Shown here: positions 8,231 through 21,147 of the stretch, piece by piece
Numbering within the stretch: position 1 is the stretch's first letter
How the letters are laid out: the number at the start of each line of letters is the position of its first letter
Notes under the pieces: model-generated
What the model was told of the DNA's origin: nothing
The model's input: only the letters and a program-made list of their open reading frames with translations
Database searches by the model: none
Source: Patescibacteria group bacterium
Lineage (GTDB): Bacteria; Patescibacteriota; Minisyncoccia; UBA9983
DNA: 27,944 bases
Reading direction: 5' to 3'
NCBI GenBank assembly: GCA_018901555.1
Contig: JAHIER010000057.1
Location: forward strand, 1-27,944
Translations under genes and position numbers: made by a program

Positions 8231-9295
8231 ATGAAAAATAAAAAAGTTTTGATAGCTATGAGTGGCGGAGTGGATAGTTCTGTTGCTGCTTATTTATTAA
8301 AAAAAGAAGGTTATAATTTAACCGGAGTATTTTTTGATTTGGGGCAGATTAATTGTCAAGCATCTTTAAAAAGCGCTGAAAAAACGGCTAAAAAAATTGG
8401 CATTCCTTTAAAAAAAATAAATCTGCGCAACCAGTTTAAAAAAATGGTTATAAATAAGTTTTTAAGTGAATTTAAAAAAGGCAATACGCCTAATCCTTGC
8501 GTGGTTTGCAATAAAAAAATTAAATTTGAAAATCTTTTGAGCTTGGCGAATAAAATGAAGATTAATTATATTGCGACCGGACACTACACAAAGCCCCACA
8601 AAGGTTTAACCTTTGTAAAATTACTACTGGCAAAAGATAAAACGAAAGATCAGAGTTATTTTTTATATAATCTTAATCAGAAAATTTTAAGCAGGACAAT
8701 TTTCCCATTAGGAAATTTAATCAAAGAACAGGTTAAAAAAATGGCTGATAATTGGAAACTGCCTTATTTAAAAAAAGAAAGTCAGGATATTTGTTTTTTA
8801 AAAGGAGATCATAATAATTATTTGAGAAAAAATCTAAAAAAAATAAAGTTGGGCAAAATTGTTGATAGTCATAGTAAAATTTATGGAACTCATTGCGGTT
8901 TGCCGTTTTATACTATTGGCCAGAGAATAGATTTGGGAGGATTACCAATTCCGTATTATATTGTAGCTAAAAATAGAAAAAGAAATTTATTAATAATTGC
9001 TAGTCTGGTTGAAGAAAAAAAATACTGGAAAAAAGAAGTAAAAATAAAAAATGTAAATTGGATATCTGGTAAAGCGCCGAACTTGGACATTAAATGTCCA
9101 AGTGGACATTTAATGTCCAAGTTGTTAAAAGCCCGTATCCGTTACCGCCAGCCACTTGAAAATTGTAAATTAAAAATTGAAAATTCTAAAAACTATTTTG
9201 TAACTTTTAATAAACCTCAAAGAGCTGTAACCTCGGGGCAATCACTAGTCATTTATAAGGGTCAAGAATTAATCGGTGGCGGAATAATTATATGA
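8231..9295 (+). CDS. mnmA: tRNA-specific 2-thiouridylase MnmA
   Basis: AMSGGVDSSV, TPNPCVVCNKKIKF, IATGHY, KDQSYFL, ESQDICF, YTIGQR, QRAVTSGQ. Confidence 0.97.
   Translation: MKNKKVLIAMSGGVDSSVAAYLLKKEGYNLTGVFFDLGQINCQASLKSAEKTAKKIGIPLKKINLRNQFKKMVINKFLSEFKKGNTPNPCVVCNKKIKFENLLSLANKMKINYIATGHYTKPHKGLTFVKLLLAKDKTKDQSYFLYNLNQKILSRTIFPLGNLIKEQVKKMADNWKLPYLKKESQDICFLKGDHNNYLRKNLKKIKLGKIVDSHSKIYGTHCGLPFYTIGQRIDLGGLPIPYYIVAKNRKRNLLIIASLVEEKKYWKKEVKIKNVNWISGKAPNLDIKCPSGHLMSKLLKARIRYRQPLENCKLKIENSKNYFVTFNKPQRAVTSGQSLVIYKGQELIGGGIII
8597..8616. repeat. In-frame palindrome CACAAAGGTTTAACCTTTGT in mnmA (HKGLTFV)
   Basis: Identical to leuS 2553-2572 and read in the same frame. Confidence 0.95.
9081..9122. 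repeat. 42-nt double palindrome in mnmA (GGACAT-N3-ATGTCC x2)
   Basis: ACTTGGACATTAAATGTCCA-AG-TGGACATTTAATGTCCAAGT: 20-nt perfect arms, each half itself palindromic. Confidence 0.95.
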
Positions 9296-10182
9296 AAAAA
9301 GTAAGGGCTTTGGTTTTATTTTCTGGCGGGTTGGATTCTATTTTAGCTGTTAAAGTTTTAGAGGAACAGGGGATTGATGTGACTGCGGTGAATTTTGCCA
9401 GCTATTTTTTTGATAGTGAACAGGCTAAAAAATCAGCCGAAGAAAATAATATAAAATTAAAAATCATAAAAAATAAATTTCCTCAATATCATTGGCAGAT
9501 TGTAAAAAACCCAAAATACGGTTATGGACGCGCTATGAATCCATGCGCTGACTGCCATTTATTAATGGTTAAAAAGGCAGGAGAAATTATGAAAAAAGGC
9601 AAATATGATTTTTTAGCTACCGGAGAAGTTTTGGGGCAAAGAGGATTTTCTCAAAACAAAAATGCCTTGAAAAATATCGAAGAACATTCTGGCATAAAAG
9701 GAAAACTGTCAAGGCCATTAAGCGCTGGATTATTAAAACCAACAGAAGTTGAAAATTCAGGTTTAGTTAATAGAGAAAAACTTTTTAATTTTAGCGGTAA
9801 GGGCAGGAAGAGGCAGATTGAATTGGCAAAAAAATTGAAAATAAAATATTATCCCTCACCAGCTGGAGGTTGTCTTTTAACTGACAAAGAATTTGGCCAT
9901 CGTTTAAAATTAATGATGGAAAATTTTGGAGCAGATGATATTGTTGTTTCAGATTTTGTTTTATTGAAATTCAGCCGTCATTTTTGGTTTGATAAAAATT
10001 TAATTATTGTTGGTAAAAATAAAGACGAAAATAACAGATTAAAAAAATTAAAACAAAAAAACGATATTTTATTAAGACCAGATTTTCCCGGTCCGAGCGT
10101 TTTAATAAGGGGAAGAAAAATTAATCAGGGAATAATTGAAGAAGCTCAAAAATTAATTAAAAAATATTCTAAAAAGATGTGA
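9292..10182 (+). CDS. ThiI/MnmA-like PP-loop (adenine nucleotide alpha hydrolase) putative tRNA thiolase, without THUMP domain
   Basis: LFSGGLDS, MNPCADCH, ATGEVLGQR, PAGGCLLTD, C-terminal IIVGKNKDEN (DUF814/NFACT-R-like); ATGA overlap with mnmA. Confidence 0.82.
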   Translation: MKKVRALVLFSGGLDSILAVKVLEEQGIDVTAVNFASYFFDSEQAKKSAEENNIKLKIIKNKFPQYHWQIVKNPKYGYGRAMNPCADCHLLMVKKAGEIMKKGKYDFLATGEVLGQRGFSQNKNALKNIEEHSGIKGKLSRPLSAGLLKPTEVENSGLVNREKLFNFSGKGRKRQIELAKKLKIKYYPSPAGGCLLTDKEFGHRLKLMMENFGADDIVVSDFVLLKFSRHFWFDKNLIIVGKNKDENNRLKKLKQKNDILLRPDFPGPSVLIRGRKINQGIIEEAQKLIKKYSKKM

Positions 10183-10201
10183 TTTATGTTATTGTAATTT
10201 T

Positions 10202-11983
10202 ATGATATCAAGGGAAATCAGAGATAAATTTTTAGAGTTTTTTACAGAAAAAGGGCATACTGTGATTTCTTCAGCTTCTTTGATTCCAAGCGAAACTGAT
10301 CCAACCGTGCTTTTTACAACGGCTGGCATGCATCCTCTAGTGCCATATCTTTTGGGAGAAAAACATCCGGGCGGAAACAAAATTGCTAATGTTCAAAAAT
10401 GTATCAGAACAGTTGATATTGATGAAGTAGGCGACATTAGTCATCTTACTTTTTTTGAAATGCTGGGAAATTGGTCATTTGGATCTTATTTTAAAAAAGA
10501 GGCTATTGAATGGAGTTGGAAATTTTTAACTGCTCCTAATTGGCTGGGACTTGATCCTGATAAAATTGCAGTTTCTGTTTTTCAAGGAGATGATAATGCT
10601 CCTTTTGATGAGGAATCTTACGAAATTTGGGAAAAAACCGGACTTTCTAAAAAAAGAATTGCTAAACTTCCTAAAGAAAATAATTGGTGGGATTCTCCTG
10701 GCGCAACAGGGCCTTGCGGGCCTGATACGGAAATGTTTTATTGGATGGGTAATTCAGAAAAAGCTCCGGAAACATTTGATCCTAATGATAATAACTGGCT
10801 GGAAATCTGGAATGATGTTTTTATGCAATATAATAAAATAGCAGAAGGACGCTACGAACCTTTAAAACAAAAAAATGTTGATACTGGAATGGGGTTGGAA
10901 AGAATCGCCATGGTCATGCAGGATGTTTCAACTGTTTATGAGACCGATTTATTTTTGCCGATCATGAGAAAAATTGATGAGCTTGGACATTTGATGTCCA
11001 ACGGGACATCGGATGTCCTTAGGTCAAAAAGAATTATTGCTGATCATATTAAGGCTGCGGTTTTTATAATTTCTGATGAAGTAGAGCCGTCAAATACCGG
11101 CCGTGGTTATGTGTTAAGAAGATTAATAAGAAGGGCAATAAGACATGGAAAATTATTAGGTATTGAAAAATTTTTTATAAATAAAATAGCCGAATCTGTA
11201 ATAGATATTTATAAAGAGCAATATCCTGAACTATTGAATAATGAATTAGAAATTATGAATGAATTAGAAAAAGAAGATGAAAAATTTAGAAAAACTTTAG
11301 ACCAAGGCATAAAAGAATTCAATAAATTAAAAGAAATTACTGGTAAAGATGCTTTTAACTTGTATCAAACTTATGGTTTTCCTTTTGAAATGACAAAAGA
11401 GATAGCAACAGAAAAAGGAATAGAAATAAATGAAACAGAATTTAAAGAAGAGTTTAATCTCCATCAGGAACTTTCTAAAACCGCATCTGTCGGCATGTTT
11501 AAGGGCGGATTGGCTGATTCTGGCGAGCAATCAAAAAAATATCATACAGCAACACATCTGCTTTTGTCAGCCCTGCGTCATATTTTAGGAAATCATGTTG
11601 AGCAAAAGGGAAGTAATATTGATTCCGAGCGCATGCGTTTTGATTTTTCTCATTCGCAAAAAATGACTGAAGAAGAAATTAAAAAAGTTGAAGATATAGT
11701 TAATGAAAAAATTAAAGAAAATTTGCCAGTATCCTGTGAAGAAATGAATTTAGAGGAAGCAAAACAAAAAGGCGCTTTAGGATCTTTTGAGCAAAAATAT
11801 CTTGCCTGCCGGCAGGCAGATGGTGATAAAGTAAAAGTGTACTCAATAGGGTCTTTTAGTAAGGAAATTTGCGGAGGACCTCATGTTGAAAATACTGGCG
11901 AGATTGGTGATTTTAAAATTATAAAAGAAGAAGCCAGTTCAGCTGGCGTGCGCAGGATTAAGGCAATTGTGGAAAACTCTTAA
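10202..11983 (+). CDS. alaS: Alanine--tRNA ligase (short, 593 aa; lacks C-Ala domain)
   Basis: TVLFTTAGMHPL, HLTFFEMLGNWSFGSYFK, DTGMGLER, GRGYVLRRLIRRA, editing HTATHLL and EICGGPHV; ends just after GVRRIKA. Confidence 0.98.
   Translation: MISREIRDKFLEFFTEKGHTVISSASLIPSETDPTVLFTTAGMHPLVPYLLGEKHPGGNKIANVQKCIRTVDIDEVGDISHLTFFEMLGNWSFGSYFKKEAIEWSWKFLTAPNWLGLDPDKIAVSVFQGDDNAPFDEESYEIWEKTGLSKKRIAKLPKENNWWDSPGATGPCGPDTEMFYWMGNSEKAPETFDPNDNNWLEIWNDVFMQYNKIAEGRYEPLKQKNVDTGMGLERIAMVMQDVSTVYETDLFLPIMRKIDELGHLMSNGTSDVLRSKRIIADHIKAAVFIISDEVEPSNTGRGYVLRRLIRRAIRHGKLLGIEKFFINKIAESVIDIYKEQYPELLNNELEIMNELEKEDEKFRKTLDQGIKEFNKLKEITGKDAFNLYQTYGFPFEMTKEIATEKGIEINETEFKEEFNLHQELSKTASVGMFKGGLADSGEQSKKYHTATHLLLSALRHILGNHVEQKGSNIDSERMRFDFSHSQKMTEEEIKKVEDIVNEKIKENLPVSCEEMNLEEAKQKGALGSFEQKYLACRQADGDKVKVYSIGSFSKEICGGPHVENTGEIGDFKIIKEEASSAGVRRIKAIVENS
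10983..11018. repeat. Double palindrome in alaS (GGACAT-N3-ATGTCC x2)
   Basis: TTGGACAT-TTG-ATGTCCAA (10983-11001) and GGACATC-G-GATGTCC (11004-11018). Confidence 0.92.
11803..11818. repeat. Perfect 16-bp palindrome TGCCTGCCGGCAGGCA in alaS
   Basis: GC-rich self-complementary 16-mer within an apparent 7-aa insertion (LACRQAD). Confidence 0.9.
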
Positions 11984-20011: not shown

Positions 20012-20452
20012 ATGACAACCGCCAAGAAAACAAAGGAGACAAAAGAAAAGAAGCCGGCAAAAAATACTTATTTTGAAGCCATAGGCAGAAGAAAAACTTC
20101 AATAGCCAGAGTGAGGCTTTTTAATAAAGGAGAATCTGGCATTATTGTTAATAATAAAGATTTTAAAAAATATTTTCCTACAGCAGAATTGCACAATGTT
20201 ATTGAAGATCCGCTCAAGAAAATGAAACTTGCTGAAAGTTTTAAAATCACAGTGAAAACTTCTGGCGGGGGAGTTAGCTCTCAGGCAGAAGCAGTTCGGT
20301 TAGGAATTTCTAGAGCCTTGGTTAAATTTAATGCAGAATTCAGAAAAAGATTAAAGAAAGCGGGATTTCTTAAAAGAGATCCTCGCACAAAAGAGCGTCG
20401 TAAGTTCGGTTTAAAGAAAGCAAGAAAAGCTCCGCAATGGAGTAAGCGATAA
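20012..20452 (+). CDS. rpsI: 30S ribosomal protein S9
   Basis: GRRKTSIARVRL, GGGVSSQAEAVRLGISRAL, RDPRTKERRKFGLKKARKAPQWSKR. Confidence 0.98.
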   Translation: MTTAKKTKETKEKKPAKNTYFEAIGRRKTSIARVRLFNKGESGIIVNNKDFKKYFPTAELHNVIEDPLKKMKLAESFKITVKTSGGGVSSQAEAVRLGISRALVKFNAEFRKRLKKAGFLKRDPRTKERRKFGLKKARKAPQWSKR

Positions 20453-20459
20453 AAGATTA

Positions 20460-20544
20460 AAGCCTCGGTTTTCCCGGGGCTTTTTACTTGGGGGTTTCAC
20501 CCCCAAGTCCTTGTATTTGTTGACGTGGCATTGGGAAAATGATA
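20460..20544 (+). repeat. Composite element copy 1: terminator hairpin + U-tract + 23-nt palindrome ACTTGGGGGT-TTC-ACCCCCAAGT + promoter-like tail
   Basis: AAGCCTCGG-TTTTC-CCGGGGCTT then TTT (20460-20485) terminates rpsI; palindrome 20486-20508; CTTGTATTT 20510-20518; GGAAAATGATA 20534-20544. Homologous to 21072-21147. Confidence 0.92.
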
Positions 20545-20588: not shown

Positions 20589-20975
20589 ATGAGTATACTT
20601 GATAGGCCATGCAGTTCACCTAAAGAAGCATTTTTAGTAGCTCAAGGGCATTGTATTACTACAAAAAGAGATGTTTGTTATGCTTATGATGGAGTCGGAT
20701 GTAGTTCTTGTCCAAAATATAAAGAAGGATTAAAAAGAAGAAAAGAAAGAATAAAAAAAGAAAAAAAACAAACTCTGAAAGAAGTTGTAATAGACATAGA
20801 CCCAATTTTTAAAAGCAAGGCGATTATGAGGATAAGAAAAATTAATTCGTATTATTACTTTGAAATTGGAGAAGTCTATAAAGATCAGCCTGATTTATTT
20901 TGCAAAAAAAGATCAATTGTTTTAACATATGAAGAAAAAAAGATTGCAGTAAAATTGCTGGCTGAGCGGGGGTAA
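20589..20975 (+). CDS. Hypothetical 128-aa Cys-rich, basic protein
   Basis: ORF with AAGGGGG SD about 10 nt upstream of ATG 20589; five Cys and one His in the N-terminal 31 aa (C..HC..C..CSSC); no family recognised. Confidence 0.65.
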   Translation: MSILDRPCSSPKEAFLVAQGHCITTKRDVCYAYDGVGCSSCPKYKEGLKRRKERIKKEKKQTLKEVVIDIDPIFKSKAIMRIRKINSYYYFEIGEVYKDQPDLFCKKRSIVLTYEEKKIAVKLLAERG

Positions 20976-21062
20976 TGCATGGTTGCATTATCAAGGCACC
21001 ACCTTGATAGGATCAGGCAAATCACCGTTTGAATTCGGGTTTGATTCCCAACTCCCGCTCCA
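20966..21062 (+). ncRNA. Non-canonical tRNA-like cloverleaf, Gly-type acceptor stem, putative ACC anticodon, long variable arm, encoded CCA
   Basis: Acceptor GCGGGGG/CTCCCGC + T73 + CCA; D arm ATGC(A)-TGGT-(T)GCAT; anticodon arm ATCAAG-GCACCAC-CTTGAT; 26-nt variable region; T arm TCGGG-TTTGATT-CCCAA; intrinsic terminator 10 nt downstream. Confidence 0.6.
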
Positions 21063-21071
21063 AATAAATTT

Positions 21072-21147
21072 AAGCCTCGGCAAAACCGAGGCTTTTTACT
21101 TGGGGGTGAAACCCCCAAGTTCTTGTATTTTTGGCTGGAAAATGATA
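21072..21147 (+). repeat. Composite element copy 2: terminator + 23-nt palindrome ACTTGGGGGT-GAA-ACCCCCAAGT + grpE promoter
   Basis: AAGCCTCGG-CAAAA-CCGAGGCTT then TTT (21072-21097); palindrome 21098-21120; CTTGTATTT 21122-21130; GGAAAATGATA 21137-21147. Confidence 0.92.

Follow-up and report, generated by a model that had tools for sequence, protein, structure and literature searches.

The interval between rpsI and grpE in this genome raises the question of whether a 97-nt sequence that folds like a tRNA is a tRNA that translates, a tRNA derivative that works outside translation, a processing signal at the end of an mRNA, or a dying tRNA gene. The window, which here means the whole stretch of 27,944 nt that was analyzed, is contig C82 of a patescibacterial genome from a groundwater metagenome assembly (G000; 525 kb in 84 contigs, 34% GC, 85% complete). 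The genes rpsD, rpoA, rplQ, rplM, and rpsI are followed by a gene encoding a 128-aa protein, here called hyp138, then by the element itself and by grpE, dnaK, and dnaJ (Table 1). An earlier sequence-only reading of this DNA had folded the element by hand and had placed an intrinsic terminator behind it; the sequence and the fold are as described there, and the terminator is present together with its T run. The terminator stem differs in sequence between G000 and G001, which is the other species of the same genus in the genome set (94% complete), and the hairpin still forms in both. The minimum free energy of the element is -38.2 kcal/mol (z = -3.87), and none of 200 shuffled sequences folds as well.

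Table 1. Features of the locus, with positions counted from the first letter of the window
Feature	Position	Strand	Observation
68-nt double-hairpin block, copy 1	20451-20518	+	Direct repeat D1 with 21063-21130; 81% identity, spacing 612 nt
hyp138 gene, 128-aa Cys-rich basic protein	20589-20975	+	Homologs with 79% and 70% identity
tRNA-like RNA, 97 nt, 7-bp acceptor register	20966-21062	+	Relaxed ARAGORN, sub-threshold Rfam tRNA-Sec match, fold z = -3.87, homologs and covariation
Acceptor stem, 5' strand GCGGGGG, pairs with 21052-21058	20966-20972	+	Invariant in 4 sequences
D arm: 4-bp stem AUGC/GCAU, loop AUGGUU	20975-20988	+	Extendable to 6 bp with UGGU loop
'Anticodon' arm: 7-bp stem (20990-20996 with 21002-21008), 5-nt loop CACCA (20997-21001)	20990-21008	+	
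Extra (variable) arm, 27 nt, irregular hairpin	21010-21036	+	27 to 29 nt in all versions
T arm: 3-bp stem GGG/CCC, loop UUUGAUU, then unpaired A64 and A65	21037-21051	+	
Acceptor 3' strand CUCCCGC, U73, encoded CCA	21052-21062	+	All versions identical except position 67 in L104
68-nt double-hairpin block, copy 2	21063-21130	+	The two copies bracket hyp138 and the RNA
Intrinsic terminator hairpin and T run	21072-21094	+	3' of the element
Second palindromic hairpin, after the terminator	21098-21120	+	

The element is represented by three species-level versions, namely, that of the window, that of G001, and a 118-nt long form found on a metagenomic contig (L095) and on two NCBI MAG contigs (L103 and L104), which are counted as one lineage because they are 99.5 to 99.8% identical to each other. 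The long-form contigs share the order hyp138-RNA-grpE with the window, and in G001 the RNA lies directly after rpsI and before grpE, without hyp138. A BLAST search of 100 relatives returned only G001. Covariance model R1 of the element, applied to 150 relatives across the class, returned no further full-length homolog and only tRNAs of about 78 nt. With model R2, neither the whole order (18 genomes, coextensive with the family, 16 of them besides G000 and G001) nor 150 genomes sampled across the phylum gave a further full-length homolog; the matches were again only tRNAs of about 78 nt. When 185,579 species genomes were scanned twice for exact patterns, the only matches were G001 and some due to chance; a match in the Legionellaceae (L073, 24.6 bits) was placed among the latter, as the pattern itself had selected it. 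The DNA behind rpsI contained nothing tRNA-like in any of 15 other family genomes, and none of the tRNA-Gly(CCC) genes of family relatives lies near rpsI or grpE, and the element is therefore no positional ortholog of these genes. In G000, the RNA is single copy, and no further copies of its extra arm or anticodon arm were found, which means that these arms are not repeated mobile hairpins in that genome. The distribution is best read as that of a single-copy RNA gene confined to a narrow clade and restricted to one genus.

ARAGORN at default settings found no tRNA in the whole window. A relaxed run of a tRNA finder, which the sequence-only reading had named as a check, recovered the element: at an 80% threshold, ARAGORN called a 97-nt tRNA at exactly 20966 to 21062, with the same acceptor stem, T arm, and long extra arm and with an undecidable anticodon (tRNA-?, Val or Gly, 'ac'). 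A further ARAGORN call made with introns allowed, a tRNA-Trp(CCA) with a 2-nt 'intron', was rejected as an artifact of forcing a 7-nt loop. Rfam at gathering thresholds returned nothing at the element. In E-value mode, its best match was the selenocysteine tRNA family (tRNA-Sec, RF01852), with 31.7 bits against a cut-off of 47 (E = 1.8e-4), and this was the top Rfam family for all three versions (31.7, 25.4, and 24.0 bits). A search of G001 with RF00005 listed 46 tRNAs, with the element not among them. One groundwater metatranscriptome contained 39% of the sampled words from a 231-nt stretch, and no RNA runs were listed for the element alone.

Over 97 nt, the window and G001 versions differ by 5 substitutions and one 2-nt indel, which corresponds to an identity of about 93 to 95%. 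Between the same two genomes, the ribosomal protein genes share 74 to 76% DNA identity and GrpE shares 65% protein identity, and the DNA just upstream of the element is unalignable. The median identity of their same-anticodon tRNA pairs (n = 22) is 81.5%, with a range of 68 to 99%, and only 4 of these 22 ordinary pairs are as conserved as the element. Across four distinct sequences, all eight substitutions at paired positions keep the pairing. Two pairs changed on both sides, both of them in the long form: the D-stem pair 10:25 (A-U to G-C) and the seventh pair of the 'anticodon' stem (G-C to A-U). Four further changes are one sided and compatible, affecting the D-stem pair 11:24 (U-A to U.G, long form), the T-stem pair 51:63 (G-C to G.U), the acceptor pair 6:67 (G.U to G-C, L104), and the outer pair of the extra arm (G.U to G-C, long form). 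Homologs with compensatory changes, for which the sequence-only reading had proposed a search, thus exist, and the pattern of substitution indicates that the element is a real gene maintained by selection.

The acceptor end and the elbow are those of a canonical tRNA in all versions, with GCGGGGG/CUCCCGC, U73, an encoded CCA, a UUYGAUU T loop, and GG in the D loop, and U8 and A14 are retained as well. The sixth acceptor pair (6:67) is G.U, but it is G-C in L104. An alternative 9-bp acceptor register would start at 20964, where the bases before G1 (GA; GG in G001) can pair with U73 and C74, and a 9-bp stem is what the tRNA-Sec model draws for the element. The two additional pairs are A-U versus G.U and give no informative covariation, and the U73-CCA placed exactly after a 7-bp stem favors the 7-bp register. 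The D loop of G001 has two additional U residues. The extension of the D arm onto a UGGU tetraloop that had been suggested can indeed reach 6 bp, but the extension pairs never vary. The long extra arm was seen correctly, its length being 27 nt rather than the 26 nt then given; in the long form, its sequence is mostly replaced and the hairpin fold is kept. The C-A mismatch read earlier in the T stem is real, and the homologs extend it to both outer pairs: two of the three lineages lack pairing at 49:65 and 50:64, the AA is invariant, and only 51:63, 52:62, and 53:61 hold across lineages, so that the stem amounts to 3 bp plus AA and not the 5 bp of a canonical elongator tRNA. The C56U deviation described there applies to the window only, whereas G001 and the long form have the canonical T loop UUCGAUU.

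The acceptor, D, and T parts point to a glycine tRNA, as had been proposed. Canonical tRNAs score next after the element's own homologs with model R1, and 27 of the 28 best R1 matches fetched from the relatives (150 searched) are tRNA-Gly genes with UCC, CCC, or GCC anticodons. Traits of the tRNA-Gly type in the element include the acceptor start GCG/CGC, UA at positions 8 and 9, a small D loop with GG, and the T-arm core GGGUUCGAUUCCC. The best reading of these traits is that the element descends from a tRNA-Gly. All glycine identity elements had been said to be present, which is correct against the E. coli rule set (identity set from PMC9976931) but does not carry over to the host. The pairs G1-C72, C2-G71, and G3-C70 of the element are common to all five native tRNA-Gly genes of G000 and G001, but all five of these have A73, whereas the element has U73 in every version. 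G10 is absent from two of the three versions, as pair 10:25 is A10-U25 in the window and in G001 and G10-C25 only in the long form, and the tRNA-Gly combination of G10-Y25 with a short variable region of 4 to 5 nt is lacking, the variable arm having 27 to 29 nt. C35 and C36 are invariant, but they lie within a 5-nt loop or, in the long form, within an internal loop. G000 encodes a dimeric GlyRS (contig C65, about 8983 to 10251), and GlyQ was not found in this genome. Dimeric GlyRS relies on the first acceptor pairs and on C35 and C36 and may not need base 73 (PMC9976931). Putative glycylation by the dimeric GlyRS is the likeliest candidate charging and our best guess; charging by SerRS would also suit the long arm and U73, by analogy with allo-tRNAs (PMC5389517).

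The 'anticodon' arm has none of the canonical 7-nt loop, U33, and unpaired positions 32 and 38. The pair G32-C38 noticed by the sequence-only reading is real, and as 32:38 covaries from G-C to A-U as a seventh stem pair, the loop has 5 nt. This loop reads CACCA in the window and AACCA in G001, position 33 being the sole loop base that differs between these species; the absence of U33, likewise noticed before, extends to all versions, and the position varies (C, A, and C). In the long form, the 'anticodon' stem has 8 bp and a 5-bp hairpin of about 17 to 20 nt sits inside the loop, with only ACCA left on the 3' side. The ACC that had been called an anticodon is invariant in the loop, but it is better named an ACCA loop motif. 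Because the long form stands for one species, its loop insertion could be recent inactivating damage rather than tolerance; the lineage with the insertion also shows both compensatory changes, not decay. The tRNA-Gly genes found have UCC and GCC anticodons in G000 and CCC, GCC, and UCC anticodons in G001, and since these native tRNAs cover all glycine codons, the element is unneeded for decoding. According to Sanderson and Uhlenbeck (2007), as cited in PMC7826273, pairs 49:65, 50:64, and 51:63 set the affinity for EF-Tu; with these pairs mostly lost from the T stem, weak binding to EF-Tu may reasonably be expected. The proposal that the RNA is probably nonribosomal gains from the covarying closing pair, the 5-nt loop, the missing U33, the loop hairpin in one lineage, and the 3-bp T stem, and to judge from these features, ordinary decoding on the ribosome is very unlikely.

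The neighboring hyp138 is a conserved 128-aa protein with four cysteines and a KRRKERIKKEKK stretch (window, 20589 to 20975; L095, 928 to 1320; L105, 1087 to 1473), and it has no match in Pfam or in the Atlas. Its final three codons and stop codon fall inside the first 10 nt of the RNA, and the two genes overlap in four loci (window, L095, L103, and L104). Where they overlap, the C-terminal ERG and the stop codon of hyp138 are supplied by the RNA gene; in L105, hyp138 ends in KL-stop, followed by a terminator and no RNA. hyp138 was rejected as an obligate partner, because the RNA occurs in G001 without the protein, and the protein in L105 without the RNA. The earlier analogy with glycine donors of Fem transferases is not supported by a partner enzyme: FemAB (PF02388) was not found in G000 (85% complete) or G001 (94% complete), and neither a FemX-like GNAT (Acetyltransf_6, PF13480) nor an MprF C-domain (PF09924) was found in G000. 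SelA was also not found in the genome, and a tmRNA is encoded there.

Each of the two 68-nt blocks around hyp138 and the RNA consists of a terminator hairpin and a 23-nt palindrome (ACTTGGGGG..CCCCCAAGT), and the hairpin loops are inverted between the copies. The palindrome occurs three further times in the genome (contigs C1, C35, and C65). In the long-form species, rpsI and hyp138 are separated by an additional 66-aa ORF that has a hairpin block of its own (L095, 593 to 793; L103, 2160 to 2360). The rpsI-grpE gap seems to collect small gene cassettes divided by the same double-hairpin block. The metagenomic contig L094 (1 to 360) is 99.6% identical to the window from the palindrome at 21098 into grpE (21093 onward), its upstream DNA is unrelated, and rpsI, hyp138, and the RNA are not there; the contig either marks a rearrangement whose breakpoint lies at the palindrome or is a chimera produced by the assembly.

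The element is probably a tRNA mimic or aminoacyl carrier that derives from a tRNA-Gly, matures as tRNAs do, and is excluded from translation. On this reading, transcription would take place at the 3' end of an mRNA (that of rpsI in G001 and that of hyp138 in the window) and would stop at the element's own terminator, and RNase P together with 3' trimming would release the RNA. The RNA may then be charged, most likely with glycine by the dimeric GlyRS, and the crippled T stem and loop would keep it off EF-Tu and the ribosome, and its role, as a mimic of tRNA or a carrier of aminoacyl groups, would lie outside translation. In loci with the hyp138 overlap, the RNase P cut would remove the hyp138 stop codon, and maturation of the RNA and full-length translation of hyp138 from one and the same transcript would therefore be mutually exclusive. 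A more specific proposal, that the RNA is a charged, ribosome-excluded tRNA-Gly mimic serving a tRNA-dependent enzyme or sensor, with its maturation coupled to the silencing of hyp138 via a non-stop mRNA, is put forward as a tentative possibility. If the charged mimic is real, its roles could include, for example, those of an envelope glycyl donor, of a decoy against toxins that target tRNAs, or of a regulator acting on GlyRS or on the stress response.

The main rival, which we regard as unlikely, is a cis-acting tRNA-like element for processing or stability that would show RNase P where to cut the upstream mRNA at its 3' end and would have no role as a free RNA; at the overlap, hyp138 would be switched off through a non-stop mRNA handed to the tmRNA system. 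The position of the RNA, always at the 3' end of a coding transcript and just before a terminator, agrees with such a role, as do the overlap with the hyp138 stop codon in four loci and the tmRNA of the genome. However, a bare RNase P signal needs no invariant 'anticodon' stem, no extra arm, and no encoded U73-CCA, and the RNA is 93 to 95% identical between species in spite of different upstream genes (rpsI versus hyp138).

Use in translation, either as a tRNA-Gly(ACC) that reads GGU or as a serine-charged, allo-tRNA-like missense tRNA, with the long form as a recently killed copy, appears quite improbable. In its favor are the invariant ACC of the loop, the tRNA-Sec family as top Rfam match, and the activity in E. 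coli translation of irregular tRNAs whose stems and arms are long (PMC5389517); an A34 tRNA-Ser is also present in a genome of the same class. Against it stand the missing U33 at a variable position, the covarying Watson-Crick pair 32:38 that leaves a 5-nt loop, the 3-bp T stem, and glycine codons that are already covered, and the long form shows compensatory changes rather than decay despite its insert. Decay of a tRNA-Gly into a pseudogene broken by small hairpin insertions is a reading that is already disfavored and highly improbable. It agrees with the hairpin structure of both the long-form insert and the extra arm and with the position of the element between duplicated palindrome blocks, but eight substitutions without a disruption make a decaying pseudogene a poor fit, and an identity of 93 to 95% exceeds the 81.5% median of true tRNAs between the same species while the flanking intergenic DNA is unalignable. 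The 'decayed atypical tRNA' that the sequence-only reading had left as an option does not fit a conservation equal to that of the best-conserved true tRNAs or stems in which every substitution keeps its pair.

Among known RNAs, a tRNA mimic or carrier kept out of translation would work most like the staphylococcal nonproteogenic tRNA-Gly, tRNA-Other, and the nontranslating allo-tRNAs, and the element lacks some defining features of each. The nonproteogenic tRNA-Gly isoacceptors of staphylococci are donors for FmhB, FemA, and FemB (PMC7826273). The element shares with them an acceptor stem of the glycine-tRNA type and the status of an extra gene beside a full decoding set, but it has none of their 7-nt UCC anticodon loop, short variable region, and 5-bp T stem, and no Fem-family gene was found with it. 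The allo-tRNAs described by Mukai et al. in 2017 (PMC5389517), some of which are thought to be nontranslational, resemble the element in a sub-threshold match to the tRNA-Sec model and in U73, and its 27-nt V arm, its 'anticodon' stem of 7 to 8 bp with covariation, and a D stem extendable to 6 bp with UGGU also agree with theirs. The 12-bp acceptor branch that defines the allo-tRNAs (8/4 or 9/3) is not formed cleanly, as the branch of the element can be drawn as 7+3 or, if the AA forms a 2-nt bulge, as 9+3, which would resemble a 9/3 allo-tRNA; the element lacks a 7-nt anticodon loop, and its acceptor, D, and T sequences are of the tRNA-Gly type and not of the tRNA-Ser type. Patescibacteria, to which the host belongs, are absent from the groups listed for allo-tRNAs in that study. 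Bacillus cereus tRNA-Other, for which effects on the cell wall, antibiotic resistance, and the iron response have been reported (PMC3399842), is likewise derived from a tRNA, works outside translation, lies beside variable or inserted DNA, and is perhaps part of a longer transcript; however, the two are unrelated in sequence, and tRNA-Other has a cloverleaf of ordinary size. Selenocysteine tRNA (RF01852) has the same long extra arm and long D and anticodon stems (24 to 31.7 bits), but the scores are far under the 47-bit cut-off, the loop CACCA contains no UCA anticodon, and SelA was not found. The element is absent from Rfam and missed by standard tRNA finders, and it is best read as an irregular, nondecoding tRNA-like RNA.

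Other unusual tRNA genes were observed in related genomes. In the same family, a contig of another genome (L061; contig C3 of G011) encodes, on the minus strand at 1420 to 1610, a 98-nt irregular tRNA that ARAGORN calls tRNA-Ala(GGC); it has a D arm of the tRNA-Ser/Leu type, a long hairpin in place of the anticodon arm, and a U-CCA end. A second tRNA-like sequence, missed by ARAGORN, follows directly after it. Odd tRNA-like genes may be more common in this family than its annotation would indicate. A genome of the same class (G024) yielded an ARAGORN call of a tRNA-Ser with the anticodon ACU (L063, 1526 to 1616), and such an A34 tRNA-Ser is unusual for bacteria. In G000 itself, ARAGORN called a 'tRNA-Stop(tta)' on contig C64 (1943 to 2016). 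This is more likely a tRNA-Lys(UUU) drawn one base out of register, because the loop reads CUUUUAA by eye; G001 has a Lys(UUU) call.

The reach of these findings is limited to three closely related species, the only ones in which the element has been seen, and covariance model R2 is ready for use on more metagenomes. At the overlap with the hyp138 stop codon, whether RNase P processing competes with translation can be put to the test. The element joins the top half of a tRNA-Gly to a closed anticodon arm. Few tRNA mimics outside translation are known and each of them is informative, and the element offers a small and clean test case. Patescibacterial genomes are among the smallest known, and with this RNA, nonessential as it looks, kept at 93 to 95% identity between species whose true tRNAs share about 80%, it must have a role that matters.
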